A DNA stretch of 64,000 nt from a plasmid. Shown here piece after piece: positions 1,711 through 59,138 of this stretch. How positions within the stretch are numbered: the stretch's first letter is position 1; each line of letters opens with the position of its first letter. The stretch lies in the sequence record NZ_CP015284.1, one strand, 5' to 3'. The notes beneath the pieces are model-generated. The model was not told the origin of the DNA, did not search any database, and saw only the letters and a list, made by a program, of their open reading frames with translations. The position numbers and the translations under genes were made by a program.

Positions 1711-2337
1711 TTAATATTCGTACTGACCTTTGACTCCACTATAGAGCCAATACACAGCTTTATCGTAACCTTGCTGAAGGGTAGCGTTAGCATCCTCCAT
1801 TAGGTCTCTCAAAGAATAAAATCCCCTGTAACTGTCTAATGCTGATTCCATCAGACAGAAAAGATATGTTGGCATATCTTTTGTTCCCCAAGCTAGAAGA
1901 TCTAATTGACTTAAATCATCTCTTGCTTCCTTTGGAAAACGACTCGGAAAATTACTTGTCGTAGAATTTCCACATTCCTTGGCACGCTGTAACATAGTTA
2001 GGCGAGTTTCCAACATGTGTATATCAGCCTCTTGAAAAGCTTCTGCATGCTCTGTGGTAATAATCAACTTAGATAGACCGGGATTGATTTCCTCAACTTC
2101 ATAATAAAGTGAAGATTCAAACGGGATCTCAATCGGAGGAAGGTTAGATACTCCCTCTCGATTCAAAACCACGTTCCTAACTGGTCGGCATAGCAAACTT
2201 TGTTGCATATCCACCTTTTTGCTATCGACAATTGATGAAATTCGGTCATTAATTAGGTCTGACGGAAAGCCAGCAATATTACTATTATATTGTTGAACCT
2301 TTTCAATATAGTAGAGACCTTGAGTGATTCCTGTCAT
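1711..2337 (-). CDS. Hypothetical protein (208 aa)
   Basis: ORF with the conserved RBS aaggagaaaaacaATG that is shared by the genes of this operon. Confidence 0.6.
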   Translation of the reverse strand: MTGITQGLYYIEKVQQYNSNIAGFPSDLINDRISSIVDSKKVDMQQSLLCRPVRNVVLNREGVSNLPPIEIPFESSLYYEVEEINPGLSKLIITTEHAEAFQEADIHMLETRLTMLQRAKECGNSTTSNFPSRFPKEARDDLSQLDLLAWGTKDMPTYLFCLMESALDSYRGFYSLRDLMEDANATLQQGYDKAVYWLYSGVKGQYEY

Positions 2338-2351
2338 TGTTTTTCTCCTTC

Positions 2352-2705
2352 TTACGCCATTACAACATTGTCAAGACCAAGCTCTTTGAGCTCCTCTTGT
2401 GTCTCAACGTTACTTTCAGTTGTCTTCAATTTGATGACAACATTCAGTCCCATAGCACGTGCTTGTAACAATGCTGAAGCAAGTGCTGGTTCGGGTTTTC
2501 CCTCAACGAAAAGGGTTTGAACCTTACGCTCCTTCATTTCCAGAATTCTCTTAATATAAAAACAAGAGAGTTCCAAAAATGAATAAGATTGAGCGTTATC
2601 AATCCGAGGGAAAGTTGTAACGCCTTCAAGAAGGTCTTTAGCAAAAAGATCCGCAAAGACCTCTTGAGTTTTTTTGTTTTTGTAGATATAAATCTTTTTT
2701 GTCAT
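2352..2705 (-). CDS. Hypothetical protein (117 aa)
   Basis: ORF with the shared RBS aaggagaaaaaacaATG, tightly packed with its neighbours. Confidence 0.6.
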   Translation of the reverse strand: MTKKIYIYKNKKTQEVFADLFAKDLLEGVTTFPRIDNAQSYSFLELSCFYIKRILEMKERKVQTLFVEGKPEPALASALLQARAMGLNVVIKLKTTESNVETQEELKELGLDNVVMA

Positions 2706-2749
2706 TGTTTTTTCTCCTTTATTTTACAAACTAGATTGTCATAACTTCT

Positions 2750-3301
2750 CTACTTAACAGAGGGAAGCTCCTCAACACGACTTAAGAAAGAAAGCAACTC
2801 CTTGCGTGTGTTGATGTCTTCAACATCTTCTGTTACTGGCGTATCGTAAGTAATATGATACTCACCATTATCCCAGCTCTTAAAGACAGAAGACTGGCAG
2901 AACTCAATCTGATCATCTTCTACCTGATAGACCAGGTTAGCCATATAGCCATTACCAAAGTAATAGCGATGGAATACAACCTTACGATTGTTTCCCAAAC
3001 GCACCAAAACTTCTGGATTTTGGCGTTTATATTGGGTTGGTTTAATGAAGAACCCAAATTGTGACCTTAAACTAGTCATCTTTAAGTCTTTCATTGCCAC
3101 CAACGCCTCATCACAAGAAATAGGCATTAACCCACTTTGTTCTAACAAGGTATTGATAGCAACCATTCCATCCTTCTTGATAAAAAGATGGCTATTCCCA
3201 GTTTCGTTCAAAAACTGATGCAAGGTCATTCCTGAGAATGAACCATTAACCTCTAACAGTTTTTTTCCTAGTAAAAGTGTTGTTGGTACAAATGTTGTCA
3301 T
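2750..3301 (-). CDS. Hypothetical protein (183 aa from ATG 3301; the ORF track gives a GTG at 3424)
   Basis: The internal ATG (MTTFVPTT...) is preceded by ggaggagaaaaacaATG. The upstream extension overlaps a hairpin and the small ORF 3418..3597. Confidence 0.6.
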   Translation of the reverse strand: MTTFVPTTLLLGKKLLEVNGSFSGMTLHQFLNETGNSHLFIKKDGMVAINTLLEQSGLMPISCDEALVAMKDLKMTSLRSQFGFFIKPTQYKRQNPEVLVRLGNNRKVVFHRYYFGNGYMANLVYQVEDDQIEFCQSSVFKSWDNGEYHITYDTPVTEDVEDINTRKELLSFLSRVEELPSVK

Positions 3302-3321
3302 TGTTTTTCTCCTCCATAGAA

Positions 3322-3361
3322 AAAGAGGAAGGTGTAGCCTAGGGCTACTACCTTCCTCTTT
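3322..3361 (-). terminator. Intergenic hairpin plus T-run placed directly in front of the next RBS (attenuator-like); an inverted copy lies at 42114..42153
   Basis: aaagaggaaggtgtagcctagggctactaccttcctcttt is a near-perfect 15-bp stem followed in the transcript by a T-run. The about 100-bp segment 3302..3400 matches the reverse complement of 42065..42175. Confidence 0.6.
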
Positions 3362-3417
3362 CTCTTCTATGTACGATATACGATGTATATTGTACGGTGT
3401 AATGTGTTTTTTGTGGC

Positions 3418-3597
3418 TCACCACTGCATCTCATCAAGTTCACTTGGGGTTAACTTACGGCCCAAATTTTGCTCAACACGCGCAGCCCAGACAAGATTAC
3501 CATTCTTGATCATTTCAATCTCCTCTGGTGTCTTGTATGGTTTATCCGGTAAGCCTAGCGACCTCCAATCCTCTTTGAATCGTTCAACTATTCTCAT
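3418..3597 (-). CDS. Hypothetical small protein (59 aa, MRIVERFKEDWRSLGLPDKPYKTPEEIEMIKNGNLVWAARVEQNLGRKLTPSELDEMQW)
   Basis: Own translation of the reverse complement. Just below the 60-aa track cutoff. Fills the gap between flanking genes. Confidence 0.45.
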   Translation of the reverse strand: MRIVERFKEDWRSLGLPDKPYKTPEEIEMIKNGNLVWAARVEQNLGRKLTPSELDEMQW

Positions 3598-3599
3598 GG

Positions 3600-4043
3600 T
3601 TAGTCTACTCCTCCCTTCAAAAAACGGTCAATGAGTCCCTTAGATGCTGCTGTATTAAAAATCACTCGGTTAGTGTTTCCAATACGACTGCCTCCGTACC
3701 GACTAACATAAAAGTCTCGAAGAGCTGTCTTTGAAATCAGCATCATAAACCCCTCAAAGCCACGATTGAAAGCGTCTTGTGCTACATAAGCAAGCAAGAC
3801 ACCTGCAATCCCTTGGTTTCTCTTATCCATTCGCACCTCCAGCTTATGGATAAAATTGTAATAATCAGTAGGCTCAGGAGTGAACTCAATCATACCAGAA
3901 ACCTCACCTTGAATTACAAAACCACTGGTAATTGCATTGGGAGAACTTATGGCCGTCCAATCAAACTCAAAGCCCTCTGATGTCAAATCAGAAAGTGTCG
4001 AGATATCCTCTTGACTGAAATCCCAAAAGAAGGTCTCTTTCAT
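3600..4043 (-). CDS. GNAT-family N-acetyltransferase
   Basis: Acetyl-CoA-binding-like segment RNQGIAGVLLAYVAQDAFNRGFEGFMML. Start taken at MKETFF with a GGAGAGG RBS; the alternative start at 4076 has a weaker RBS. Confidence 0.7.
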   Translation of the reverse strand: MKETFFWDFSQEDISTLSDLTSEGFEFDWTAISSPNAITSGFVIQGEVSGMIEFTPEPTDYYNFIHKLEVRMDKRNQGIAGVLLAYVAQDAFNRGFEGFMMLISKTALRDFYVSRYGGSRIGNTNRVIFNTAASKGLIDRFLKGGVD

Positions 4044-4095
4044 TTCAATTTTCCTCTCCAGTATCTTTTTGTTCACTTTATTATAACACCTTTCT

Positions 4096-4587
4096 TCAGA
4101 CTGTGATACTTGTTGCTAGAGCTAGCTCTTGATCATAGACTCCCTCTAACTCTTTCAAATAAGACTCGGAATAATCTCCAAGGTCTTCATCTGTTAAGAG
4201 TTCAGTGGTTATCCCTTTACCTGGGACATTGCAAGTCATAACGGTTGCTTTATAAATAAAGTTCACACCAGACTCTGCATCTACAGAATCAAAAGTGGCA
4301 GACATTGGGATATCGCTAAGAGTGCTATCTTGCTTTAAGATGTCAGTCAAAAAGCTATCGATATTCTCTCGAATATTCCAGTTCCCACAAGCTGTAAAAG
4401 GAAGTGTCACTGAGACAAGTCCTTCTTCAGTTGTGATACAATCTGCTTTTCTTGGATGACCTTTTAGAGTCGTTGGGGTCCAAGCTTTTTCATTGATTAC
4501 TCTATGAGTAGCCACAAGCACCTCTATATCCGTTAATGTTGGTGCGGAAATAGTTACCTTGCCAAAGGCATGAGAAATATTCCCCAT
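4096..4587 (-). CDS. Hypothetical protein (163 aa)
   Basis: ORF. The internal ATG MGNISHAFG is preceded by ggagaggagaaaac. Confidence 0.6.
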   Translation of the reverse strand: MGNISHAFGKVTISAPTLTDIEVLVATHRVINEKAWTPTTLKGHPRKADCITTEEGLVSVTLPFTACGNWNIRENIDSFLTDILKQDSTLSDIPMSATFDSVDAESGVNFIYKATVMTCNVPGKGITTELLTDEDLGDYSESYLKELEGVYDQELALATSITV

Positions 4588-5463: not shown

Positions 5464-5772
5464 CTAGGCTGGTGCTACTACCCACATGGAGCGGATAGCT
5501 TGCACCTTTCGATTCGTCTCTGCACGGTCTAAGCGACAATCGCTATCAAACTTAGTACCGTAGACATCTTCGTATACCTCTCGCATACGTTTGCCCAGGT
5601 CCTCAATATGAGACAATTGTGCTTTCGAAGCACGCGCATTAAGGTTAGCTATATAGCGATTATAGACTTTTCTAAAAATCGCATTCAGTCTGGCATTATC
5701 TTCAAGATACCACTTCAGTGAGTAGCTTTTATAATGCTCTTTTAACCACTTTGCTTTTTCAGTTTTTGTCAT
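5464..5772 (-). CDS. Hypothetical protein (102 aa)
   Basis: ORF with RBS gaggagaaaaacaATG. Confidence 0.6.
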   Translation of the reverse strand: MTKTEKAKWLKEHYKSYSLKWYLEDNARLNAIFRKVYNRYIANLNARASKAQLSHIEDLGKRMREVYEDVYGTKFDSDCRLDRAETNRKVQAIRSMWVVAPA

Positions 5773-5786
5773 TGTTTTTCTCCTCT

Positions 5787-37249: not shown

Positions 37250-37490
37250 AAAATTTACAACCATTTTGTAGGATATACCTGCAATTTTATATGACACACA
37301 TGCATTTTTGTAGACTTAACATACAACTTTATAGGATATACATACCGTTTTGTAGGATACGCCTACAATTTTATATGACATACATACATTTTTGTAGACT
37401 TAACATACAACTTTGTGTGACTTTCATGCAAAGTTATATGATATACCTACCAATTTGTAGGATATACATACAATTTTATATGATAAAGGT
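37250..37490. repeat. Iteron-like direct repeats upstream of the initiator gene (candidate origin)
   Basis: Two about 67-bp direct repeats (ttttgtaggatatacctgcaattttatatgacacacatgcatttttgtagacttaacatacaacttt and a near copy), a third partial copy, and about 22-bp sub-repeats. Confidence 0.7.
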
Positions 37491-37733: not shown

Positions 37734-38258
37734 CTACTTAAAGCTCATCTCAGTTTCTACTAATGTGTTAAACAACTCCTTTTGTTCTGGATCTAGAAGT
37801 TGGTACACATGGTCTAACATTTCAGTGAATAGCTTATCAGAACCACCGCGTTTAGGATAATTGCCATTTTCTCCTTTAAGGTCTTTTTTGTTTAAAACAG
37901 CTCTTAATGCAGAAAAACGTGACATTGATAATTGTGTCATATTGAGATTTGCACGTGATTTTTCTTCCACTGTTTTAGCTGGTTCCAGTTTTGTAGGAAG
38001 TTTATTTTTTTCTTTTTTCTGAGTGACATCGTTTACTTTTTTAGGGGCAACAGCAGCTTTTTTTGGTTCTACACTTTCTTCAGTTAGATAAGCAATATCA
38101 TGCTTTTCCTTAAGTTTATCAATTACTACTTCTTCAATTTCTTTCCCTTTAAAAAAGCGTTCAAATAATTCTTTAGCTGCTGTTCGGTCATTTGATTCAA
38201 CAGCCGTTAAAAGGTTATTAAAATTTCTTTGTTGGATTGTATTAAGCTTTTTCGCCAT
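37734..38258 (-). CDS. Small partition partner protein (ParB/ParG-like, type Ib), 174 aa from MAKKLN
   Basis: Overlaps the parA stop by 17 nt. RBS tggagaacacaATG. Confidence 0.5.
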   Translation of the reverse strand: MAKKLNTIQQRNFNNLLTAVESNDRTAAKELFERFFKGKEIEEVVIDKLKEKHDIAYLTEESVEPKKAAVAPKKVNDVTQKKEKNKLPTKLEPAKTVEEKSRANLNMTQLSMSRFSALRAVLNKKDLKGENGNYPKRGGSDKLFTEMLDHVYQLLDPEQKELFNTLVETEMSFK

Positions 38259-39072
38259 TGTGTTCTCCAATCGTCTTAATTAGTTCTTTCATAACATTTG
38301 TGATTTGTTTTTTAGGGATGCTATAGCCACTATTTCTGAAAACATTTGCTTGATTAGCAATCATATCTTTGTATTGTTTATTATTAAACAAGTATTGGTC
38401 AAAAACCTTGGTATTATGCTCTTCAGCAATTTCTTCAAGAGTTGCTACTGCTTCTCTTGCTTTGATTTGTTTAATTGATTTTTTACCAAAGCCTGGCCCT
38501 TTATCAACCTGAGTTATAACGATTCCAGCTATAACAATATCAATTCCAAAGAAAGAGAACCCTTCTTGAACAGCTTCAATATCTTCGATTGTATCTTTTA
38601 CACCTTCAATACCAAACTTATCAGGTGTTGTAGGAATAAGAACGAAAACTTTCGAATTTGTAAAAAGAGAACTTGTTGTAGAAACACCAAAAAAAGGAGG
38701 TGTATCAAAAAGTACAAAATCGTAATAGTCATTGATATCTTGTACAACATTTCTTAAACGAAAATCTCTATCTTTTAGTCCTGATGCTTCACTCTCCCAG
38801 TTTTTCATAAGCTTACTTCCAGGAAGCAAATCATAACCGTCAACTGGCACAATGGCATCAGCTACTTCTACTTCTTTTTTTAGTACATCATAAATTCCTT
38901 TATGTTCTTCTTCGTTTACTCCTGCCGCTGTAGTAAGATTGCATTGACCATCAAGATCTCCTGCACAAGTTTTATAGCCAGCGTCTCCTAGAGCTTGAGC
39001 CAGTAATACAGTTAAAGTTGTTTTTGAGGCTCCTCCTTTCTCGTCCATCATTATGACTGTATTTGCAACCAT
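38242..39072 (-). CDS. parA: ParA/Soj-family partition ATPase
   Basis: Deviant Walker A MMDEKGGASKTT. Start taken at ATG 39072 with an aaaggag RBS. Confidence 0.85.
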   Translation of the reverse strand: MVANTVIMMDEKGGASKTTLTVLLAQALGDAGYKTCAGDLDGQCNLTTAAGVNEEEHKGIYDVLKKEVEVADAIVPVDGYDLLPGSKLMKNWESEASGLKDRDFRLRNVVQDINDYYDFVLFDTPPFFGVSTTSSLFTNSKVFVLIPTTPDKFGIEGVKDTIEDIEAVQEGFSFFGIDIVIAGIVITQVDKGPGFGKKSIKQIKAREAVATLEEIAEEHNTKVFDQYLFNNKQYKDMIANQANVFRNSGYSIPKKQITNVMKELIKTIGEHNGEKA

Positions 39073-39099
39073 AGAAACTCCTTTCAATCCATTATGTAC

Positions 39100-40050
39100 G
39101 ATACACTATGTATAACAAAACGATACATATTATTAACTATTTAAAGTATACCATATAGAAATCTAATAGCAAGTATTATGTAAGATATATCGTAAATAAT
39201 ACAATATACACTATGTATAGCTTATAATGGATTATTGATAATAAGCGTGTTACGCATTAGCTAATACATAGTGTATCGTTTACAATATACTATTTAAAAA
39301 GAAAGCATATGACATATCAAAACTAGACAAGAATAAAACACGATACATTATATAAAATAAACGATGTATCTTATAGATATATAAGATACATATGGTAATG
39401 ATAGATAGGATATATTACTATATTCAAGTTTCCTTCAAGCATTACACATTACACTATACATAACATCACTATATATAGTGTAGTGTAAAAAAGAAATTGC
39501 ACTTTTTTAGTGTACTATAGACGATGTAATATATATCGTTAAATGATATATTGCTAAGTATTATATAGTATACCTTTCATACACTCCTTTATTATAATAA
39601 AGGAGAATATTTTTATTACAACACGATACATAATACATTATGTAGTGTGAATAATATATAGCTTTTGTATTTATCGTATATAGTAGGTAATATACGATAC
39701 ATTATTATAGTGTACTATAGACGATGTAAGATATATTGTTAAATAATGTATTGCTAGGTATTATATCGTATATCTTTCATCCATTCCCTTAATATACTAA
39801 ATAAGAATAGTTGTATTATAATACGTTACACGATACATTATGTAATGTGAATATTGTATAGTACTATCTGTTATCGTATATAATAGATAATATAAGATAT
39901 ATATTGTACGATACATTAAAGAACTATATATGATTATGTTCTTATTGGGTTATAAGTTATATTTAAAATTAGTATAAATGTTGTTCTATGTTGTTTACGA
40001 TACAAGATACATAGTTTAACAATGTATCTTGTATTCCTTTATGATGTTTG
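39100..40050. repeat. AT-rich repeat array directly upstream of parA: two tandem about 190-bp units (39510..39690, 39700..39880) and at least 8 copies of ACGATACAT/ATGTATCGT. Candidate centromere/operator.
   Basis: Repeats read directly from the sequence. The same 9-mer also occurs next to the two attenuator hairpins (3372..3396, 42091..42108). Confidence 0.55.
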
Positions 40051-40224
40051 ACACTTCGCTTATTACGATTGGCGAACTATACATAATGTGTTGTAAACAT
40101 ATAGATTATGTATAGTATATAATGTAATGAAAAATAGTATATATAGTTATAATTTCGAATAACGATAAACTTGTAATGTTAGTAGCTCTTTGCTATACTA
40201 AAGTCATAAATAATTATATTTATA

Positions 40225-40739
40225 TTTTCACCACCTCAAATGGTGAACCTTTGGTCACGTGACTAAAGAAAAGAGAAGCATGGAGGAGGATATGTCATTA
40301 CTGGTTCTGTCCCAGCAATAGGCATACCATGTTTTATAATGGGTTAAAAGGGAGCGTACTCGCTTTTAGCTATCAGTTAAGTCATCAGACAGAAGAAGAG
40401 GCTTAACGCTTATAACAGGTACGAGAAATTGCTTTTCTGACTTTGAAAGGCTACAACAAACGTTATTAGCAACTAAGCATAACGAGAAGTTTATCCTATG
40501 GTTTGCCATAGGCACGCGCAACCTTGTTTTTTGAGACAAGGCTTGCCGGCTTCTTTGTTATGCTTTTTTTGTTTTGAGTTTGGGTAGACAGACAAAAAAG
40601 GGAGGCGACATCTCGATGATTAGAGGTGAGGAACAGGTGTTCCCAACTCTAACTTGTCGGCATACGGAGGAAGGGCTACGAATCAGTATTCGAGGCTTTC
40701 CAAGGTCACTTTACAACAACAATTTTTAAGGAGAAAAAA
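40225..40739 (+). promoter_or_regulatory. About 515-bp structured leader upstream of the rightward operon (inverted partner of 9618..10135)
   Basis: See the partner leader. Contains the palindrome ggtcacgtgacta and the uORF ATGTCATTACTGGTTCTGTCCCAGCAATAG preceded by ggaggagg. Confidence 0.6.
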
Positions 40740-42065
40740 ATGACAAAATTAATCACTATTGGAAATCAAGAGTTAATTCGTGTTGGGCGAGATTACCCTT
40801 GTCCTATTTGTGGGAAACCAGATTGGTGTTTGTTGTTCGCAGATCAATCTAAAGCAGTTTGTGCAAGAAAAATTGACCCAGACAAACCACAATTTGGTAG
40901 TGCTGGGACAATTTATGAATTGGACCCTAAAAAAGCGAAAGAGGTGACTTTTGAACCAAGTTGGAAAAGTCAGCCTTTGGCAAGTATCTCAACACTTCAC
41001 AAGGTAAATTCTCTTGTGATTGATGTGTTAGGATTGACTAAGGAACATGTCGAGCACTTAACAAGTGCGGAACGAGGTCTTTCTGTTGAGACCATTGCAC
41101 TGCGTGGTTACGCTTCATCAACAAAGCAAACACGTCAGAAGCAGGTTGATACAACAGTATCTCATCCAGCAACTATTTGGGAAAAGCTCTTTGTTGCTAA
41201 TGGGCTTCCTAAAGATGCATGGCGTGGAGTGCCTGGCTTCTACTGGAATGAAAACGCAAAATGTCCTATTTTTGAATCAAAAGATGGAATTCTAATTCCA
41301 TGTCGCAATTCTTGGGGACAAATTGTAGGTTTTCAAGTACGTCTTGATAACGTTAGTTATCAAGCCAAAGTAAACGAAGCCTTTCAAGAGGGACGAAATG
41401 CACGTACTGCTAAGGTCTTCCAAAATGACGACGGAAGTTTCGATTGGTATGTGTTTGCTAAAGGTTCATCACACGAACTAGCAAGTGGGACAACTAAGGA
41501 AACTAGTGTTAAACTTCGTTCTGGACTTGAGTTGACATTTAAAAAAGGGCAAAAATATGTCTTTGTTTCGTCAGCATATAAACCAGAAGGAACGAGTGCT
41601 AAGTCCTTTCCCCATTTTGCTTATTCTGATGAAGTCTTAGAACAAGCACGCTTTTCTGAAGAAGGTAAGGCAAAAGTCAATCTTATGAGTAAGGTTGATA
41701 ACCTTCTAGTTACTGAAGGTCTGCTTAAAGGAGATATCACCGCGTCAGTTGCGAAAAACACTCGTCTTTCTCAATTGGGGAATATCTGTGTTATCTCTAT
41801 GGCAGGAGTAGCAGCATGGCGTCCTATCTCGGACTTTATCGGAAAGACTGAACTCAAAAAGGTTAAACCAATTTATCTTGCATTTGACCAAGACTTTGAG
41901 GATAATGACTCGGTATTTGAACGCATGTATGACATGGTTCAAGATCTAGTTACTAAGCAGTCTTGTACGGTTCGTGCTCTAATCTGGCCTCGCGAAAAGG
42001 GAATTGATGATTTCCTTTTGAAAGCATCCCCAGAAGAAAAGATTAAGTTTAAAACTTATCAATGA
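40740..42065 (+). CDS. DNA primase (zinc-finger plus Toprim, plasmid/phage type)
   Basis: N-terminal CPICGKPDWC..C zinc-ribbon-like segment. C-terminal LLVTEGLLKGD (Toprim Glu) and AFDQDFEDND (DxD). Confidence 0.7.
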   Translation: MTKLITIGNQELIRVGRDYPCPICGKPDWCLLFADQSKAVCARKIDPDKPQFGSAGTIYELDPKKAKEVTFEPSWKSQPLASISTLHKVNSLVIDVLGLTKEHVEHLTSAERGLSVETIALRGYASSTKQTRQKQVDTTVSHPATIWEKLFVANGLPKDAWRGVPGFYWNENAKCPIFESKDGILIPCRNSWGQIVGFQVRLDNVSYQAKVNEAFQEGRNARTAKVFQNDDGSFDWYVFAKGSSHELASGTTKETSVKLRSGLELTFKKGQKYVFVSSAYKPEGTSAKSFPHFAYSDEVLEQARFSEEGKAKVNLMSKVDNLLVTEGLLKGDITASVAKNTRLSQLGNICVISMAGVAAWRPISDFIGKTELKKVKPIYLAFDQDFEDNDSVFERMYDMVQDLVTKQSCTVRALIWPREKGIDDFLLKASPEEKIKFKTYQ

Positions 42066-42113
42066 TATAACGCAATATATAGTATGATATACATCGTATA
42101 TCGTACATATAAG

Positions 42114-42153
42114 AGAAAGAGGAAGGTAGTAACCCTAGGCTACACCTTCCTCT
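42114..42153 (+). terminator. Hairpin plus T-run attenuator immediately before the RBS of the next gene (inverted copy of 3322..3361)
   Basis: aaagaggaaggtagtaaccctaggctacaccttcctctttttctatggaggagaaaaacaATG. Confidence 0.6.
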
Positions 42154-42175
42154 TTTTCTATGGAGGAGAAAAACA

Positions 42176-43639
42176 ATGACAAATTTACTAACAGCAGCAC
42201 AAAAAACTGCTAAAAAAGTCACTTTTCCCAAGATAAAAGAGACTGATAAAGCTGCAGATATCGTGAGAAAGTTTTGTACTTACTATGCGAATATTCGTAG
42301 ATATCAATGTCAGGAACTTTTATCTCAAGAAGTCGGAGCACTAGCAGTAGAGGTATTTGGACAGGATAATGTTTACACAGCCTATAAAGTCAAAGACATC
42401 ATGGCTGATATCGAAACCATTGGCTATGATCAAGCTCATTTTTCGAATCAACTAAAAAGACTGTTCGAGGGCTTGAGCTTGAGGGATGAAGAAAATCAAG
42501 AACACCTTTTCGGTGAACAGATTCTTCTCACATTAGATGGAAGTAGATTACCTGCTACTAAAACTGCAGAAGACACCAAACGCACTTTGTATCTTCTCAT
42601 TGTCGACGATTCAAAGGTTAGAGTACCTTTGAAGAAAAACCTAAGTTTTTGGAGAGAGAGAAATTCACAAACAAGGTATGGACTAGTATCTTTTAGCTTT
42701 CTTGAATTGATGTCTATCCATAGTGAAGGTATCTACAAGGAATGTAGTTATTATGGAAATATCCAAAAGATAGCTAACGTTCTAAAAAGAGAGTATGAAG
42801 ATGCTCTTGCAGCTAACCTAAATGCACAATATGTTAATCAGTCAACTAAGACGATAGCCAGTGTGCGTGAGGATAAAATCTTTCAAGATCATGAAATGAA
42901 CAGTAATACGTCATTTCTTGATTTAGGGTTTTCGAAAGTTGAAGTGGATACCGAGCGTTATCGAGGTAGTGATTTTGACAAGGAGAAATTCAAGGTTCTA
43001 GAGAACGAATGGGAGAAGTTGTGTAATCACTTACCTCATTCTACTGTAGAACCCGAACTCAAATTCCGGAAGCTAGGAAAACATAAAGCAAGCGGACTTT
43101 ATGTGCCAGGGTTAAATATCATGGCAGTTGATGTAAGAGATTCCTCATCCTTCATCCATGAGTATGGTCATTATTTAGACTATACGTATGATAAAGCTGG
43201 AATCATTAGTTCTACGTCTCATAGCTTTAAAGATATTCGTTATATCTACAAGGCTAGCTTGCTGAAACTTATTCAAATAGCTGAGGAAAGCAGAACGGAC
43301 TTAGCTCAAGCTGTTCATATTAAGAAGAAGTTGGATTATTATTTGACACCGACTGAAGTGTTTGCACGTGGCTTTGAATGGTGGGTTTTTGAAACTTATA
43401 CCAAAGATTCAGAACTGCTATCTGATGAAGCTACTTACTATACTCGATTAGAGTATAGGGCTTTGAGGCAATGTCGACACCTTTTGTTTGCATTTTTTGA
43501 CACGTTCTTTGAGAACTATCGTGCAATGCAACCTATTTATAAGGTTGAGAAGGAGCCAAAAACACTAGTAGCTTGTCGAAAGCCACTTGAAGATAAACCA
43601 ACAACTGAAGGAGAACAGTTAAGCTTGTTTGAGTTCTGA
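42176..43639 (+). CDS. Zincin-like (HExxH) protein with a C-terminal beta-clamp-binding-like motif
   Basis: IHEYGHYLDY followed by a downstream Glu (TEVFARGFEWW). C-terminus ...EGEQLSLFEF (QLSLF). Confidence 0.55.
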   Translation: MTNLLTAAQKTAKKVTFPKIKETDKAADIVRKFCTYYANIRRYQCQELLSQEVGALAVEVFGQDNVYTAYKVKDIMADIETIGYDQAHFSNQLKRLFEGLSLRDEENQEHLFGEQILLTLDGSRLPATKTAEDTKRTLYLLIVDDSKVRVPLKKNLSFWRERNSQTRYGLVSFSFLELMSIHSEGIYKECSYYGNIQKIANVLKREYEDALAANLNAQYVNQSTKTIASVREDKIFQDHEMNSNTSFLDLGFSKVEVDTERYRGSDFDKEKFKVLENEWEKLCNHLPHSTVEPELKFRKLGKHKASGLYVPGLNIMAVDVRDSSSFIHEYGHYLDYTYDKAGIISSTSHSFKDIRYIYKASLLKLIQIAEESRTDLAQAVHIKKKLDYYLTPTEVFARGFEWWVFETYTKDSELLSDEATYYTRLEYRALRQCRHLLFAFFDTFFENYRAMQPIYKVEKEPKTLVACRKPLEDKPTTEGEQLSLFEF

Positions 43640-43652
43640 GAGGAGAAAAACA

Positions 43653-44033
43653 ATGACTGAAATGACGGTCAAAAAGTATTTGGAACCTTATTACACTTTA
43701 GATAGAGTGGCATTAGGTTCAATACTAGAAACAGCTAGGAAAGAATTAGATAGACCTCTATCTCTTCAAGATGTTGCAAATAGAATTGGGGTTTTTAAAG
43801 GAACTGTCAATAATTATGAAAAAGGACGGTCTATTCCTAAAGAACCACAATTTTCGATGCTTTGTAAACTGTATAAAATTGATAAGGTTGACCTTATCAA
43901 TAAAACTACAATTCTTGATAGAGATAAGGTTCTTTCCAAACGTTACGAATTGTTGAGTACGATTCGTGAATTGCAGAAAGAAGCTGCAGAGTTAAAGCTG
44001 TTACTAGAAACTGAAAAAGGAGAAAAACAATGA
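43653..44033 (+). CDS. XRE-family HTH transcriptional regulator (126 aa from MTEMTV)
   Basis: LSLQDVANRIGVFKGTVNNYEKGRSIP helix-turn-helix. RBS gaggagaaaaacaATG. Confidence 0.65.
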   Translation: MTEMTVKKYLEPYYTLDRVALGSILETARKELDRPLSLQDVANRIGVFKGTVNNYEKGRSIPKEPQFSMLCKLYKIDKVDLINKTTILDRDKVLSKRYELLSTIRELQKEAAELKLLLETEKGEKQ

Positions 44034-44812: not shown

Positions 44813-44824
44813 AGGAGAAAAACA

Positions 44825-45286
44825 ATGACGATGGAAATTAATGATTTTGACCGCTTCATGGCAGTAAGCCATTTTGATGATGAAATGGCGGAAGCTCACA
44901 CACCGACTGAGGATGCTATTCATAATTGGGTAGTTGATAATCAAGAGGATGATGAGCTGATTGCTGGGATTCTCAAACATCTTGATCGTACGATTAAGGA
45001 TGCTATGGCTTACTGCATCAGAAAAGCCAGTAAATCTGACTATAGAGAGGGTCAGGGTGCTATGGTTGATGATGCCACAGTCTTTTCTTGGGTTAAAGAG
45101 TATTTTACCGCTGAAAAGGTTGAGACTAAACCAGTTGTAGGTAAAATGACTACTGGTAGTAAGAAATCAACCAAGCAACCAACGAAGAAGCCAAAAAAGA
45201 AAAAACCAACTAAGAAAACTCCTGAAAAGGATGAGAAACAGTTAGATCTTTTTTCGGATTTATCTATTGAAGAAGGCGAATTTTAA
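44825..45286 (+). CDS. Hypothetical protein with an acidic N-terminus, a K-rich tail and a terminal QLDLF motif
   Basis: C-terminus KKSTKQPTKKPKKKKPTKKTPEKDEKQLDLFSDLSIEEGEF. Confidence 0.55.
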   Translation: MTMEINDFDRFMAVSHFDDEMAEAHTPTEDAIHNWVVDNQEDDELIAGILKHLDRTIKDAMAYCIRKASKSDYREGQGAMVDDATVFSWVKEYFTAEKVETKPVVGKMTTGSKKSTKQPTKKPKKKKPTKKTPEKDEKQLDLFSDLSIEEGEF

Positions 45287-46893: not shown

Positions 46894-47009
46894 ATAAGAG
46901 GAGAAAAATAGAATCGTCAATAGGTTATTAGTCAATCTCGAATTTTCTGTGCTATACTAAAGAAAACATTAGATGTATTCTCTAGTAAAATGCTGGGAGG
47001 ACAATAGTT

Positions 47010-47357
47010 ATGAAATTGACTATTATTATATATAACAACAAAAGGATGGTTGGGAAATACCTAGTTGATACGGTTAGTGAGACTATAGAAACGTTTGTAA
47101 GAAAAGATGATTATCTGTTAAATACAGAATTCACTTATGAACGGATGGTAGACTTTCTAAAAGGGCGTCAAATTGATTTTGGTCGAAAAAATCGAAAAGA
47201 GCTTTTAGGCTATACTTATAAAGCTCCAGATGTCTGGCATGAAATTGCCATGACACACGGTTTTGATACCGATGATTTTTATTGGGTATCAATACCAGAA
47301 CTCAACGATGAACCGTTTGTTTTAGAAGACCATCATCCTAACTTAGGAAGACGATAA
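47010..47357 (+). CDS. Hypothetical protein (115 aa)
   Basis: RBS gggaggacaatagttATG. Extended -10 TGCTATACT upstream at about 46948. Confidence 0.55.
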   Translation: MKLTIIIYNNKRMVGKYLVDTVSETIETFVRKDDYLLNTEFTYERMVDFLKGRQIDFGRKNRKELLGYTYKAPDVWHEIAMTHGFDTDDFYWVSIPELNDEPFVLEDHHPNLGRR

Positions 47358-47431: not shown

Positions 47432-50400
47432 ATGGAAGAACAAAAAAATAATACTAAAACAATGACTAAAGCAGAAAAGGTTCAAGCTAACCTTTCTGCT
47501 ATTAAACTTGTGAAAGCACTCGAAGCAGATAACCGTCTAGCTGATAGTGCCGAACAAGAAATTCTCTCTAACTATGTTGGTTGGGGAGGACTTGCTAACG
47601 ATTTCTTTGATAGTAAGATTAATCGTTTTGCAAAAGAACGTGATGAGCTAAAAAGTCTTGTCACTAAAGAAGAATATCGTGCGATGGAAATGAGCTCCTT
47701 GACGGCTTACTACACAAGTCCAGAGATTGCTACTGCAATGTGGGATAAGATTGTAGAAAGTGGTTTTAAAGGAGGTAATATTCTTGATCCATCAATGGGT
47801 ACTGGTATCTTCTTTGAAACAATGCCAGAGGACATCAAGAAGAATTCTACACTTTATGGAATTGAACTTGATACCATTACTGGTGCTATTGCTAAACACC
47901 TTCATCAAGATGCTACTGTTTTAGTCCAAGGATTTGAAACAGTAAACTTTGAAGGGACCCCATTTGACTTGGTCATTACGAATGTTCCATTTGCGGATGT
48001 TCGCATTGTCGATAAGGCTTATGATAATAAACCTTATCGTATTCATGATTACTTCTTTAAGAAAGCTATCGATTTGGTACCCTATCATGGGATGGTTGCT
48101 GCTATCACTTCAACTGGTACTGCAGATAAGAGTGCTGGTTCAATTCTGCCAGAACTCCGTCGTAGCGGAACTCAGTTTTTAGGTGGTGTCCGCTTACCAA
48201 ATACTGCTTTTAAAGATGCTGGAACACGAGTGGTAACAGATATCCTATTTTTCCAAAAAGGAGCTTTTATCCCTGTTCCCGATAATAATATCGACTTTTG
48301 GTCTTCAGATAGAAATAAACTCCCCTTTGATAAACGTGTCTCACTCAATCCCTATTTCTTCCAGGATGCTATTTGTAAAAATCCTTGTGTCCTAGGTGAT
48401 TATCAGGTACGTAATTTCAATGGTGGAACACTGGATCTTGTGGTAGATAGCTCTTTTGACTTAGCTTCAGAGCTTCAAGAAGCACTATCAAAAGTAACAG
48501 TGCCTTTCGAAGTAGAGAGACTAGAACCTCGTGATATTATCCTTAAAGAAGAAGTGAATCATCTTGACCAAGGCTTACTTACTTCACTTGATATTCGATT
48601 GAATGAGTATGCTTGTGATAAAAATGGGCGTGTCTATTATCGTGATAACACGTCTATCCGTCCTAGCTCACGCGCAGCTGAAATGATTTTTTATCAAGAC
48701 GAACAAGGACAGTTCGTAAAATACGATGATAAATACAAAGAAGAAGCCATTTTAGACTTTGAAGCAGCAGTAGAAGCAGACCCTAATATTGTTACAAATA
48801 CATGGGTAAGTCAAACACCTTCTAAAGCAGCTAAAAGTAAAGGGCTTTACAAAGGTATTTATTTCTATGAAACACCCCTTACGGATACAGAAAACAAGCG
48901 TATCCGTGGCATGGTTGCTATCAAAAATGCTTATCAAGCCATTATTGATATTCAAATGACGACAGACTATGATGAAGGGAAATTCAAACAACTGCTTGCA
49001 ACACTTAATCAAGCCTACGATACTTTCAAGAAGAAGTATGGTTATATCAATCAAGCGGTGAATGCTCGCCTCTTTGACCGAGATGACCGTTATCCTCTTA
49101 TCGCTAGTCTTGAATTAGAGGAGTTGGACGAGAATGACAGCTCAAAGGTAGTCTTTGTGAAGTCAGATGCTTTTAAAAAGCCAACTATTCGTCCTAAAAA
49201 ACACCTCCATCAAGTGATGTCAGCAGTAGAAGCTTTGAATGTGTCGCTTTCAGAAGGTCGTGGCGTTGATTTGAACCTCATGAGTTCTGTCTATCCAGAT
49301 GTTTCAGAAGATATGATGATTTCAGAACTAGGTGAGACAGTGATGATTGATGTGGAACGCTATATTGATGATAAGACTGTACACTATGTTACTAAGGATA
49401 AATTCCTTTCCGGTGATGTTCTTGCTAAACGTGATTGCATTAACTCTCTCATTGAAGACGGAGATACACAAGCGGATTGGGAACGATATTTGGAATTGAT
49501 TTTATCTGTTGTACCAGAACCAGTTGTCTTATCTGATATTGATTTCAGCATTGGTTCTAGCTGGATTCCTAGTAACGTCGTTTCTCAATGGGTGTTTAGT
49601 GAATTGTTGGATGAAAAGGTTGGTCTCCATTCTGAAGAAGCTAAATCACTATTAGTGACATCCAGAATCGGACGAGGTTTCAACGAACGCTTGTTAAACT
49701 GCTATATGAGTCGTCAATCTAACCTTCGTTTAGGTCTACGTGATGAGTACAATAAAAGCTACTCACACGCAACAGATATTGTGGCTCACTTGCTTACAAG
49801 TAATCAACCAACAATCATGCGTAACTTTGGTACGACTGAAAATCCTGTACGTAAGGTTGATGAAGTGGCAACAGCAAACCTACGTGAGTGTGAGCGTGTT
49901 CTACAAGAAAGCTTTAAGAACTTTATTCATGAAAACCCAACAGTTCAAGAAGTGATTGAGGATACCTACAATGAAGTCTTTAATCGCTATGTGACACGTC
50001 AATATGATGGAAGTCTCTTGGAATTTGATGGGTTGGCTAAAGGAGTAGAGCTTCGCCCTCACCAAAAAAATGCGGTACAACGTATTCTTGAAGAGAGACG
50101 TGCACTACTTGCTCACGAAGTGGGTACTGGTAAGACACTAACCATGATTTCTGCAGCTTTCAAGATGAAAGAACTAGGGCTTATTCATAAACCATTGTTT
50201 GTGGTTCCATCTAGTCTAACAGCACAATTTGGTCAAGAAATTATGCGTTTCTACCCTACCAAGAAAGTGTTTGTTACGACTGAGCAGGACTTTGAAAAGT
50301 CACGTCGTCGCTTGTTCGTTTCTCGTATTCTAACGAGCGACTATGATGGTATTGTGATTGGGCATTCTCAATTTGAGAAAGTTCGTGTCTCACAAGAACG

Positions 50401-52948
50401 TGAACAAGCCTTTATTTCGGAAAAGATTGATGAGCTTGATGAGATCATTAGTTACGCAAAAGCTAATGATGACAAAATCACTTTTAAGCAAGCACAATCT
50501 ATGCGTAGAAGTCTTGAGGCAAGCTTAGAAACGTTGCTTGAAAACAAGACTGGTATTGATGAGTTTATCAACTTTGAAAGCCTTGGTATTGATATGCTCT
50601 TTGTTGATGAAGCCCACGGGTACAAGAATGTCCGTCCTATGACACGTTTGGGGAACGTTGCTGGTATTACCAACCGTACCTCAAAAAAGAATATGGATAT
50701 GGAAATGAAGGTGCGCGTGCTTCAAGAAGAGCATGATACACGTCACGTTGTCTTTGCGACTGGAACACCAGTTTCCAACTCTATTAGCGAAATGTATACG
50801 ATGATGAATTATCTTCAACCAGATGTCATGGAACATTTTGGTGTCAGTTTCTTTGATGCTTGGGTTGGTGCGTTTGGGATTGTTGAGAATAGTCTTGAGC
50901 TTAACCCTACTGGAGACAAGTATATTTCACGTAAACGCTTTGCTAAATTTATGAATCTCCCTGAGCTGATGGCGATTTACCGTCAGACTGCAGATATCCA
51001 AATGACTGAAGACCTTAATCTTCCAGTTCCTATGGTAGAAAAGGTAGCGGTTGAAAGTCAGTTGACGGATAACCAAAAAGTTTATTTGGATGAGCTTGTA
51101 GAACGCTCAGACCGAGTTAAAAATGGGAGTGTAGATCCTAGTGAAGATAACATGCTTAAAATCACTAGTGAAGCCAGAAAGTTGGCTTTAGATATGCGTT
51201 TGCTTGATGCAGAGCTCTATGTAAGAGCTGATGCAGACAAACTTATGCAAGTGGTTGAGCGAGTGGATAAGATTTATCACATGGAAGCTAAGCATAAAGG
51301 GACACAGATGATTTTCTCTGACCTTGGAACTCCTAATGGCAAAGGTTTCTCTGTTTATCAAGAGTTGAAAGATTTGCTTGTTGAACGTGGGATTCCAGAA
51401 GAAGAGATTGCTTTTATTCACGATGCTGCTAACAAAAAGGCTAAGCTCCAACTTCAACGTCAAATGAATGCTGGTGAGATTCGTATTCTCATGGCCTCAA
51501 CGGAAAAAGGGGGAACCGGTCTTAACGTACAACGTCGTATGAAAGCTGTTCATCACCTCGATGTGCCTTGGAAACCGTCTGATATTATCCAACGTAATGG
51601 ACGTTTGGTTCGTCAAGGAAATATCTATCGTAAGGTAAATATTTTCCACTATATCACTAAAGGAAGCTTTGATAACTACCTTTGGCAGATTCAAGAAACA
51701 AAGCTTCGTTATATTACTCAAATCATGACCAGTCGTACACCGATGCGAGCTTCAGAGGATATTGACGAGCAAACACTCTCAGCCTCTGAATTTAAAGCTA
51801 TTGCGACAGGTAATCCATATCTTAAACTTAAGATGGAACTTGATAACGAATTTGAGTTGTTGTCTAATCGTCGTAAGGCTTGGAAACGTGATATTGCTTT
51901 GTCTCAAAAACGTATTAAGCAGGCCCTTAAAGATAAGGCAATTTACGAGAAGAAACTTTCTCTATTAGTCCAGGATAAAGAGCTTGCAGAAAAGACAAGA
52001 CCTTGGAAAGAAGTGGTTGAAAAAGAAGATGGTAAGAAATATGAGGTTGAGCATAACCCATTTGTTATGACATTTGAACCAGATGGATACGAAGCAACTA
52101 AGAAAGATGTTGCAGGGAATCAACTGAACTATGCTATGCAGATGAATGTTGCCGCTGATCCACTCCATATGAAAATGACAACCCTTGCTCATTATCGTGG
52201 TTTTGTCCTTCGTGCGTTGGAACAAAAATCACCTTGGCAACCAGAACGCATGCTTGACTTGCATATTATTGGTCAAAATAGCTATGCTGTTCGTCTAGAC
52301 TTTGCGAGTGGTATTGGGACTATCCAGCGTATCAACAATGTTATTGATGGTATGGATAAACAAGCCAAACTCTTACAGGAAAACATTGAACGTTGTTCAG
52401 AAACTATTAAGCGAGGAGAAGCTGCAGATGTTTTTGCAGACCAAGCTCGTCTTGACTATGTATCAGCAAAACGTGCCATTGTTAATCCTCTTATCGAAGT
52501 AGAGGACGAGTCTAAGAAGCCTACTGTAGAACAAATTGAAGAAGCAATCAATGCTTTTGACTTGCGTTATAAGGCAGACCATCCAGAAATGGATGAGGAC
52601 TCAGATGTAAAAGTTAGCTCAATCACTGAGGAATATAGTACTAGCTATGATCCTGATGAAGAAAGCGAACTTGTTGAAGCTATCGATGAGTCAGTAGATG
52701 AAGCAGAAACTGCCTTCGAGGAAGAAGAAGTAGTTGCTAAAGAAACCGTTGAAGAAACGACTCATGTTGTTGTTTCACAAGAAGTTCTTGATATGGCTGA
52801 TGACTTCCTAGAAAGTATTTCTGAACTCTTTGGAATGACTGAAGAACATAATGATAATGTTGCTACAGAAGTAGTTTCTGAAACCTCTGTTAATGAGGTA
52901 GAAAAAGTAGAAGTTTACGAAGAAATTTCACTATTTGACTTTGTTTAA
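47432..52948 (+). CDS. N6-adenine DNA methyltransferase fused to an SNF2-family helicase (1838 aa), the conjugative-element anti-restriction type
   Basis: MTase motif [13 protein letters not shown]. Helicase motif [14 protein letters not shown], motif [14 protein letters not shown], motifs [19 protein letters not shown]...[11 protein letters not shown]. Acidic C-terminal tail. Confidence 0.85.
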
Positions 52949-53057
52949 AATGCGAAGGGTATTGTTAGTATCACTTTTGCAGCATAAAAACACCCTATTT
53001 TTGAACTGCACCCCAAAAGTTAGACAGAAAAAATCTAACTTTTGAGGTGTTTTTATT

Positions 53058-53594: not shown

Positions 53595-54409
53595 ATTTAC
53601 TTCTTGAAACGGCTGGTTTAGCTCGCTCAACTTACTACTATCAGTTGAAACAACTAGATGGATTTGACAAAGATAAAGAGCTTAAAGCTGAAATTCAATC
53701 AATTTATTGTGAGCATAAAGGAAATTACGGCTATCGTCGAATGACTCTTGAATTGAGAAATCGTGGCTTCATGGTAAATCATAAGAAAGTGCAACGTCTG
53801 ATGAAGGTTCTTGGTTTAAGTGCTCGAATTCGTCGTAAACGTAAGTATTCTTCATATCAAGGAGAGGTTGGTAAGAAAGCAGAGAATCTCATTCAACGCC
53901 AGTTTGAAGCATCAAAACCAATGGAAAAGTGCTACACAGATGTGACAGAGTTTGCCATTCCAAATAGCACACAGAAATTGTATTTATCGCCTGTTTTAGA
54001 TGGCTTTAACAGCGAAATTATTGCCTATAATCTCTCAACTTCACCAAACTTAAAACAAGTGAAAGCTATGTTAGACCAGGCCTTCACAGAGGAGCATTAC
54101 GAAAATACAATTCTCCATAGTGACCACGGTTGGCAATCCCAACATCAGTATTATCATCAATTTTTAGAGGATAAAGGGATCCAACCGTCCATGTCACGTA
54201 AGGGAAATAGTCCAGACAATGGTATGATGGAGTCCTTCTTTGGCATTCTTAAGTCTGAGATGTTTTATGGTTATGAGAAGACGTTTCACTCACTTGAGCA
54301 ATTGGAACAAGCTATTGTAGACTATATTGATTATTACAACAACAAACGAATTAAGGTAAAATTAAAAGGACTCAGTCCTGTGCAATACAGAACTAAATCC
54401 TTTGGATAA
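53570..54409 (+). CDS. IS3-family transposase OrfB (DDE/rve integrase core)
   Basis: [13 protein letters not shown]...[24 protein letters not shown]...[13 protein letters not shown]. Confidence 0.85.
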
Positions 54410-54493
54410 ATTAAATGTCTAACTTTTTGGAGTCAGTACAAAATAGGGTGTTTTAAATGAAGACAACGACGTTTTTATGATAATATTATATTT

Positions 54494-56654: not shown

Positions 56655-56740
56655 CTCAAGTAGAGTTTGTACTGACCTCAAAAAGTTAGACATTTAATTT
56701 ATCCAAAGGATTTAGTTCTGTATTGCACAGGACTGAGTCC
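56655..56740 (-). mobile_element. Right-end fragment of a second IS3 copy (IRR plus the last 13 codons of orfB)
   Basis: Reverse complement of tactgacctcaaaaagttagaca matches the IS3 IRR. Encodes ...[13 protein letters not shown]. Confidence 0.7.
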
Positions 56741-58371: not shown

Positions 58372-58700
58372 TTTTAATTTTACCTTAATTCGTTTGTTGT
58401 TGTAATAATCAATATAGTCTACAATAGCTTGTTCCAATTGCTCAAGTGAGTGAAACGTCTTCTCATAACCATAAAACATCTCAGACTTAAGAATGCCAAA
58501 GAAGGACTCCATCATACCATTGTCTGGACTATTTCCCTTACGTGACATGGACGGTTGAATCCCTTTATCCTCTAAAAATTGATGATAATACTGATGTTGG
58601 GATTGCCAACCGTGGTCACTATGGAGAATTGTATTTTCGTAATGCTCCTCTGTGAAGGCCTGGTCTAACATAGCTTTCACTTGTTCTAAGTTTGGTGAAG
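58297..58700 (-). pseudogene. 5'-truncated IS3 orfB fragment (codons about 170 to 270), with an adjacent small plus-oriented piece of the same orfB at about 58725..58770
   Basis: [38 protein letters not shown]... is identical in protein sequence to the intact copy. Plus-oriented gagcataaaggaaattatggctatcgccgaata matches orfB codons about 40 to 55. Confidence 0.7.
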
Positions 58701-59138
58701 TTGAGAGATTATAGGCGAAATTCAGGAAAATTATTATGAGCATAAAGGAAATTATGGCTATCGCCGAATAGTGGACCATCTAGAATACAACAAACGATAG
58801 ACTTTTGGTGGACATCAATTCCACAACAAGTTTCAATCATAACTTCCATTACAAAAACCTCCTGTTAACTATTGAACAATAGAACAAGAGGCTACTAGTA
58901 ATTTTATTTTCATGCTCAAGGCATATTCGAGTTATCTCATGACTCTTGTTCATCCAGTTTTTGTTACAGGCTAGGCAAAGCCCTATTAAAAACTACGGAT
59001 TTGTATTGTTCACCTTCATTATAAGCCGAACTTTCTTTTCTGTCATGAGTTAGCAGGCTAATCCTGCTTAGAGTTTTTGTTGCACTTCATTTTACAACAG
59101 GGTGAAAAGTTTTCTTCATGTATTTGTCGAAATTCTAA

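Follow-up and report, generated by a model that had tools for sequence, protein, structure and literature searches.

A conserved intergenic hairpin cassette that most likely throttles distal genes in both divergent operons of a Streptococcus salivarius-type megaplasmid

Results

Two divergent operons around the replication and partition region

The window, which is the whole 64-kb stretch of DNA analysed here, is part of a Streptococcus salivarius-type megaplasmid of the family of pSsal-YU10 and pSsal-NU10 that was typed as non-mobilizable. Its identity to related megaplasmids is 85-87% across positions 2300-4500 and 93-95% across 41300-43000. The rep/par region is flanked by divergent operons that carry phage-like recombination genes and genes of anti-defence type. 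The left arm encodes SSB, a DUF3799/PD-(D/E)XK nuclease, ERF, a RadC-like protein and a GNAT acetyltransferase, followed by the first copy of the intergenic module described below (copy 1) and then by unknown genes. The right arm encodes a DUF3854 protein and, beyond the second module (copy 2), an LPD1 protein, an HTH protein of 134 aa (43629-44033), an ATPase and an ORF of 1838 aa (47432-52948); the corresponding right-arm positions of relatives are annotated with an AcrIIA9-family gene and PcfJ, and those of distant plasmids with an SNF2-related protein. The features to which we refer are the following:

3299..3315, minus strand: copy 1 SD GGAGGAG (3309-3315) and ATG (3299-3301) of the 183-aa gene at 2750-3301
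3316..3324, minus strand: copy 1 U-run, sense TTTTTCTAT, directly 3' of the GC-rich core stem
3318..3365, minus strand: copy 1 hairpin of 22 bp with one bulged A and the loop CUA; core 3325-3358; -34.7 kcal/mol, rank 1 in the window
3368..3389, minus strand: copy 1 box, sense TATACATCGTATATCGTACATA, found by motif scan; 20 of 22 bases match 39093-39114
9618..10172, minus strand: left-arm promoter TGCTATACTAAAG (10160-10172) with a leader of ~530 nt, heading the operon with copy 1
37734..38258, minus strand: 174-aa protein downstream of parA, candidate ParB-like partner
38242..39072, minus strand: parA, 276 aa, with AAA_31/CbiA ParA-type ATPase domains
39093..39114, minus strand: parA-proximal box TATACATAGTGTATCGTACATA, immediately upstream of the parA RBS (ATG at 39072), behind the extended -10-like TGTTATACA
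39098..40116, no strand assigned: AT-rich array upstream of parA, with 6 exact copies of ACGATACAT and 19 at ≤1 mismatch
40191..40739, plus strand: right-arm promoter TGCTATACTAAAG (40191-40203) with a leader of ~530 nt, heading the operon with copy 2
42088..42109, plus strand: copy 2 box TATACATCGTATATCGTACATA; a preceding TGA yields the extended -10-like TGATATACA, like TGTTATACA of parA
42112..42159, plus strand: copy 2 hairpin; core 42119-42152, with one A.C mismatch relative to copy 1; -28.0 kcal/mol, rank 5
42153..42178, plus strand: copy 2 U-run (42153-42161), SD GGAGGAG (42162-42168) and ATG (42176-42178) of the 487-aa LPD1-type gene (42176-43639)

The two arm promoters have an identical extended -10, and their leaders are 91% identical between the arms, which accounts for the other inverted repeats of the window. 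Within each leader (9618-10200, minus strand; 40160-40739, plus strand) a long-range stem formed by AGCATAACGAGAAG and CTTCTTTGTTATGCT is followed by a T-run in an attenuator-like arrangement. Rfam returned no match for the arm leaders; in distant plasmids the same place is taken by a leader of similar length, in which nhmmer found no similarity to those of the window. A comparable leader attenuator of 456 nt is present in pLS20 (PMC13401043). A third exact TGCTATACTAAAG occurs at 46950-46962 (plus strand), in a 116-nt gap before a 115-aa gene at 47010, and is probably an internal right-arm promoter. The left arm also contains a near-consensus extended -10 promoter, ATCACA-16-TGTTATAAT, at 4076-4107 (minus strand), upstream of the GNAT gene and ~700 nt upstream of copy 1. 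Strong extended -10 promoters are thus located upstream of the modules, at 10160-10172, 40191-40203 and 4076-4088, and not within them. Elsewhere in the window, an inverted repeat of 345 nt (54023-54367 and 58372-58716; 99% identity) flanks ~4 kb and looks like the ends of an IS or transposon, and a further repeat of 79 nt links 54364-54442 with 56666-56744.

An inverted pair of modules with terminator anatomy

An initial annotation of this DNA had pointed to an inverted pair of about 100 bp at 3302..3400 and 42065..42175. The pair is real: within the 64-kb window, 3277-3408 and 42069-42200 are 88% complementary over 132 nt, with a core of 96 nt (3295-3390 and 42087-42182) at 97.9% identity, and the module occurs at these two places only. 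Copy 1 has its sense on the minus strand and copy 2 on the plus strand, the copies being inverted because their host operons are divergent. Read on the sense strand, both follow the same order, namely the stop codon of the upstream gene, the box TATACATCGTATATCGTACATA, the hairpin, the U-run, GGAGGAG, 7 nt and ATGAC. Few intergenic gaps of the arms are as large as those that hold them (116 and 110 nt).

The 34-nt hairpin core GAGGAAGGTAGTAGCCCTAGGCTACACCTTCCTC was found at 3325-3358 (minus strand) and, with one mismatch, at 42119-42152 (plus strand), where 0 matches were expected by chance. Its 5' arm, AGAGAAAGAGGAAGGU(A)GUAGCC, is joined through the loop CUA to the 3' arm GGCUACACCUUCCUCUUUUUCU, after which the leftover bases of the U-run, AU, follow. 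The annotated 15-bp stem describes the core well (GAGGAAGG.../...CCTTCCTC, with one bulge and a 3-nt loop), but pairing of the A-tract (AGAGAAA in copy 1) with the U-tract lengthens the full stem to 22 bp. The RNA of a 131-nt module folds at -42 kcal/mol (z = -6.7 to -7.9), and when 60-nt folds were slid along both strands of the whole 64 kb, the copy 1 hairpin was the most stable of all; copy 2 ranked only fifth because of its one A.C mismatch. The T-run and the RBS that had been reported behind the hairpin are present on the sense strand as TTTTTCTAT followed by GGAGGAG and ATGAC. Taken together, the GC-rich stem-loop with its short loop and the U-rich tract 3' of the stem have the anatomy of a Rho-independent terminator set directly before an RBS, in agreement with the initial annotation. 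A simple terminator scan did not flag the module hairpins, since the T-run pairs with the upstream A-tract and is, under the rule for the start of the T-run, counted into the stem.

The U-run ends 4 nt before the SD, effectively adjacent to it, so that no promoter fits between the hairpin and the downstream gene. Every mRNA of the downstream gene has therefore traversed the hairpin. The RBS that the two copies had been noted to share is indeed present in both, but it is not specific to the module: the 16-nt block GGAGAAAAACAATGAC, in which the first two codons are contained, was matched 12 times, always at a gene start in one of the two arms (for example 2333-2348, 5768-5783, 43642-43657 and 44814-44829), compared to 0.08 expected. 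The 183-aa gene behind copy 1 (2750-3301) has no Pfam family. In the relative NZ_MN480763.1, the RefSeq start of the gene at 124331-124999 lies upstream of the module and yields a 222-aa product that reads through the hairpin. The SD and ATG after the hairpin, which give 183 aa in the window, are more likely the true start of the gene behind this module.

Long stems are not confined to the modules, since other terminators of the window have stems of 16-18 bp with A/U tracts. After the 1838-aa gene, a 17-bp terminator hairpin at 53006-53057 (plus strand) even holds the SD of the next gene (GAGGTG; ATG at 53058) in its 3' arm. A terminator set against the next gene start is thus in the house style of this plasmid.

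Two diverged paralogs conserved across relatives

The module was present at two places in all eight related PLSDB plasmids, and an exact-pattern scan recovered it from at least 118 contigs of metagenomes as well as from 4 genome contigs. Searching a phage database with the module gave no match, and a loose pattern scan of IMG/VR returned 36 unrelated sequences with no homologue among them. In several of these unrelated contigs a terminator stands directly before an RBS, which suggests that the arrangement is not unusual.

Comparison of the variants resolved two diverged paralog types. Type A lies behind a 59-aa ORF and has the apical stem GUAGCC/GGCUAC and the tail UCUUUUUCUAUGGAGGAG; type B lies before the LPD1 gene and has the apical stem AGCU/AGCU, the tail UUUUUGCUAUUAAGGAG and a longer box region that ends in CATAGTGTATCGTACATAGTACATAT. 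The conserved state is therefore one of two diverged paralogs that have stem arms, box, U-run and RBS in common. In the window, copy 2 consists of a type A core between type B flanks (ACGCAATA... upstream, MTNLLT... downstream), and the same hybrid was found in 3 metagenome contigs. Type B flanks around a type A core indicate a gene conversion of ~96 nt in this lineage and, judged from these sequences, the near-identity of the window copies is the product of that conversion between older paralogous modules. The near-identical duplication in both arms that the initial annotation had emphasized thus holds for the window as a recent conversion state of this lineage, but not as a conserved property.

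The genes around the modules are less constant. The gene behind type A varies by plasmid, with three variants of 177-197 aa or a 117-aa gene at the same RBS-ATGAC junction, and in some relatives that lack the 183-aa gene the module is fused to the next RBS block, as expected for recombination between blocks. A GTP pyrophosphokinase gene lies between the DUF3854 and LPD1 genes in 8 of 8 PLSDB relatives, directly upstream of type B in the two that were examined in detail. The window is without this small alarmone synthetase-like gene, the junction falling at 42065/42066 (the gene of the relative occupies 2313-2885 of the extracted stretch). In most relatives, the gene upstream of type B is already followed by a weak hairpin with U7. 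Distant plasmids, whose LPD1 protein is 38% identical, have a hairpin with U6 directly before the RBS of the LPD1 gene that is unrelated in sequence and has a stem of 12 bp. Across these plasmids the position and kind of signal before the LPD1 gene are conserved, whereas the sequence is not.

All 14 distinct variants folded as hairpins of 19-23 bp (-21 to -35 kcal/mol), and each carries a U-tract, UUUUUCUAU in type A and UUUUGCUAUU or UUUUUUCUAU in type B. In an alignment of the 14, standard pairs filled 95.7% of cells, compared to 51-60% with slid partners. Three stem pairs are altered on both sides, including one that goes from C-G to U-A between the paralog types and one that goes from G-C through A.C to A-U within type A; this covariation evidence is modest, because 16 of 22 stem pairs are invariant and the outer ~14 pairs were fixed by the pattern used to collect the relatives. 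The sense RNA was more stable than the antisense RNA in 13 of 14 variants (mean difference 3.5 kcal/mol) owing to G.U pairs, which favours a role in the sense RNA over a role at the DNA level.

A box common to the modules and the parA region

The initial annotation had tied the modules to the partition region through the 9-mer ACGATACAT, and on this point it needs revision. The 9-mer is absent from both copies, even at 1 mismatch, its nearest counterparts there (ACGATATAC and ACGATGTAT) differing by 2. In the array upstream of parA, where at least eight occurrences had been claimed, 6 are exact and the claim holds only if a mismatch is allowed (19 at ≤1 mismatch); this array also contains a tandem duplication of 200 bp at 83% identity (39500-39661 and 39700-39861). 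The link itself stands in another form, as a box like that of the parA promoter region that lies just upstream of the hairpin in the same orientation.

The box common to modules and par region spans 16-22 nt. Its 16-nt version TAGTGTATCGTACATA is exact at 39093-39108 (minus strand), and each module differs from it by 2 mismatches; at ≤3 mismatches TAGTGTATCGTACATA has 7 matches in all, namely the two modules, the parA-proximal site and array sites, compared to 0.5 expected. The parA-proximal site is kept in pSsal-YU10, where the type B module and the parA-proximal box CATAGTGTATCGTACATA agree exactly across 18 nt. The orientation of the box relative to the downstream gene is identical at the modules and at parA, and conservation of the box region equals or exceeds that of the coding DNA beside it. 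The copy 1 box comprises a -10-like TATACA and two ATCGTA repeats, 7 nt apart, inside the imperfect palindrome GTACaATATAC-ATC-GTATATcGTAC. In every variant, as at parA, the box is preceded at 0-3 nt by a -10-like hexamer (TATACA, TATAAA or TATAGT). A TGn extension is seen in window copy 2 (TGATATACA) and in the commonest type A variant (TGCTATAAA), and is not conserved among the variants.

These features agree with a type Ib ParB/centromere operator in two respects: a repeat array lies beside a ParA ATPase gene, and the module carries a repeat of the par region, which is the box and not the exact 9-mer. The 174-aa candidate partner of ParA has no Pfam or PHROG match and close homologues only, and its AlphaFold model (pLDDT 40) is too poor to use. 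Upstream of rep, at 37260-37480 (minus strand), three iteron-like repeats of the type TTGTA(T/G)G(T/C)(A/G)TATCCTACAAAA are spaced ~85-105 nt apart; they carry the variant GTATATCCTACA three times, which differs from the par/module box by one base (CC for CG). Since a box variant also lies upstream of rep, sequence alone does not single out the binding protein. In the distant plasmid NZ_CP135592.1, no convincing motif common to parA and the module position was found. We take the box for a probable binding site of a DNA-binding protein of the plasmid, to which a weak internal promoter like that of parA may be added; it could serve as operator, as promoter or in both roles.

A proposed terminator within the operon and its alternatives

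The module is most likely a ~100-base intergenic cassette, one per divergent operon, that throttles expression of the genes behind it. We give about even odds to the best of the readings considered here, an intrinsic terminator between cistrons that works as a polarity point beside a par-operator-like box; in its simplest form this terminator would be partial. The long-stem Rho-independent terminator would be the main working part and would act on the sense RNA. A share of transcripts would end after the proximal genes, which would thereby gain a stable protective 3' hairpin, and expression of the distal genes, which are often variable, would be lowered relative to the proximal ones. The box upstream of the hairpin, of the same family as the operator-like site of parA, would be a candidate site for a plasmid DNA-binding protein. 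Termination itself, its efficiency and the binding of a protein to the box are what we infer from the sequence.

Regulated rather than simply partial read-through at the hairpin, as the initial annotation had envisaged, is possible. Folding of nascent RNA from 4 copies revealed no competing antiterminator structure, the 5' arm being unpaired or inconsistently paired, and blocking the 3' arm of the terminator costs 18-31 kcal/mol. Rfam yielded nothing relevant for the whole window at the gathering score and, at E<1 across 40100-42300, a sole match to mir-583, a spurious one to the polypurine stem. A leader-peptide attenuator was rejected, as the ATG of the only short ORF (in CTATGGAGG) is absent from type B (CTATTAAGG). 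Readings of the module as an oriT, an sso, an ssDNA promoter or a transposon end were dropped in view of the diverged paralogs in most plasmids, the link to gene starts and the favoured sense RNA.

The position of the box raises a difficulty for the terminator reading: were the box a promoter, the hairpin would lie in a 5' leader, which would better fit a regulated attenuator or a small-RNA gene. We regard as rather unlikely the corresponding alternative, in which the box is a parA-like promoter/operator core controlled by a plasmid protein (the 174-aa ParB-like one or a regulator of the HTH type), and read-through of the terminator needs a trans-acting factor. Transcripts would start in the box and reach the terminator 10-35 nt further on, giving by default a terminated RNA of ~55-75 nt; candidates for the factor are an antiterminator of the Q type that loads at the promoter and a system of processive antitermination. 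With a promoter active in the box, the hairpin would stand in a short leader and the module would be a trans-regulated attenuator or the gene of a short terminated RNA. The idea of the initial annotation takes its strongest form here, and it is the box that sustains it. The -10-like hexamer beside the box in all variants, as in TGTTATACA followed by TAGTGTATCGTACATA at parA, argues for such a promoter, as do the TGn extensions of window copy 2 and of the commonest type A variant, the orientation shared with parA and conservation at least equal to that of neighbouring coding DNA. The weak hairpin and U7 that precede type B in most relatives point the same way: they make a second plain terminator seem redundant, and the LPD1 gene, placed after what may be the terminator of the gene before it, would be promoterless unless the module had a promoter. 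However, -10-like hexamers are common by chance in AT-rich DNA, the -35 elements match poorly and the TG extension is not kept from variant to variant. The best promoter match in the window copies, TTATCA-16-TATAGT in copy 2, reaches only 9/12 plus the extended -10-like element, copy 1 gives none, and the type B module of pSsal-YU10 is without a consensus promoter. Nor is there an evident factor, since neither ConAn1 (Pfam pXO2-34, PF17362) nor another antiterminator domain was found in the 20 ORFs scanned across both arms, and the model of the ParB-like protein reaches only pLDDT 40. A more specific proposal, that box and hairpin form a DNA-loaded read-through switch in which the ParB-like or another box-binding factor sets the passage of RNA polymerase, appears very improbable to us.

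The remaining explanations move the function away from termination or remove it. Intercistronic RNase III sites are known from phages T7 and SP82, and the hairpin could mainly be an element of RNA processing or stability, where RNase III cleavage or an exonuclease block splits the proximal from the distal mRNA, so that the upstream fragment is stabilised and the following RBS exposed. The stem of ~22 bp is enough for RNase III and far beyond what termination needs, the terminator stems reported for B. subtilis measuring 9 ± 2 bp (PMC10325885); the hairpin is conserved immediately 5' of a strong SD, and the sense-strand preference fits a role at the RNA level. We nevertheless hold this to be unlikely, somewhat more so than a promoter in the box: the U-run, conserved in both types and in the distant hairpins, belongs to terminators and is not required by RNase III, the 12-bp stems of the distant positional analogues are too short for it, and long stems are the general terminator style of this plasmid. 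The variable gene behind type A, the microhomology offered by the 16-nt RBS/start block at 12 gene starts and the ~96-nt conversion between modules in the window lineage would all fit a DNA-level recombination anchor or mobile regulatory cassette for exchange of the genes behind, with a secondary role in expression. Repeats recombine anyway, without any need for a selected function, and such a cassette would leave the sense-strand G.U bias, the U-run and the sequence-unrelated positional analogues unexplained; with no recombinase-site feature identified, it seems to us highly improbable. That the pair is a chance similarity or the functionless relic of a neutral duplication could be argued from the presence of only two copies in the window and the generic nature of the RBS part. 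The conservation data effectively refute this reading and leave it almost no probability: 0 matches were expected by chance, all relatives and more than 100 metagenome contigs keep both loci, the non-coding box stays constant between variable flanks, and some of the stem changes are compensatory.

Discussion

Strong hairpins with a U-tract inside a long plasmid operon with a long leader, like the modules described here, are known from the conjugation operon of pLS20 (PMC8191782, PMC10325885, PMC8955417). In the long-stem TerR terminator of pLS20, a stem of 15 bp gives resistance to processive antitermination (PMC10325885), and the module stem, with its 15-bp core and up to 22 bp, is equal to it or longer. 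TerR, however, marks the end of an operon, whereas the module hairpin abuts the RBS of the next gene, and the two are unrelated in sequence. ConAn1, encoded at the operon start in the conAn processive antitermination system, was not found in the ORFs scanned here, and the plasmid is typed as non-mobilizable.

Two phage systems offer further parallels. In phage lambda, the terminators tL1 and tR1 stand with nutL and nutR in divergent operons, and Q acts at PR'-qut-tR'; in control of the Q type, a DNA element at the promoter decides on read-through of the nearby terminator. The megaplasmid resembles lambda in having a symmetric pair of cis elements in divergent operons that emanate from a central control region, with a terminator before the distal genes. 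Here, however, the hairpin is the terminator itself and not a boxB-like recruitment hairpin, so that the analogy is one of layout only. T4-type phages carry mobile regulatory cassettes termed PeSL (promoter-early stem-loop), which like the module are short, conserved and recombining, combine a promoter-like sequence with a stem-loop and flank variable genes. They differ in number, with dozens of PeSLs compared to two loci per plasmid, and the module has a putative promoter and a stem-loop with a U-run.

For the box, the nearest comparison is the omega protein of pSM19035/Inc18 plasmids, a ribbon-helix-helix ParB that binds heptad operators (WATCACW) upstream of copS, delta (parA) and omega. 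In both cases a small ParA (276 aa here) lies behind an array of short repeats, and the repeat family recurs elsewhere on the plasmid, which suggests, by analogy, that one protein both binds the centromere and acts as a global regulator. The repeats differ, being of the ACGATACA/TATCGTA type here and WATCACW there, and the additional sites of the megaplasmid lie inside operons before a terminator, not at clear promoters. Overall, control by the cassette is of an ordinary and known kind, an intercistronic terminator with a common operator-like box, in a form specific to this plasmid family.

The megaplasmids of S. salivarius carry the bacteriocin loci of probiotic strains. Were the read-through switch considered above true, the distal anti-defence or establishment genes of both arms would be coupled to the partition or copy-number state of the plasmid, and without the factor each module would yield a short terminated RNA only. 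More generally, the module is useful for correcting annotations, and its common box ties the module points to the control region of parA. It marks where each backbone operon divides, a proximal part lying before it and a distal part behind; the distal part comprises the LPD1-type gene (followed in relatives by the AcrIIA9-family gene) and a variable slot.
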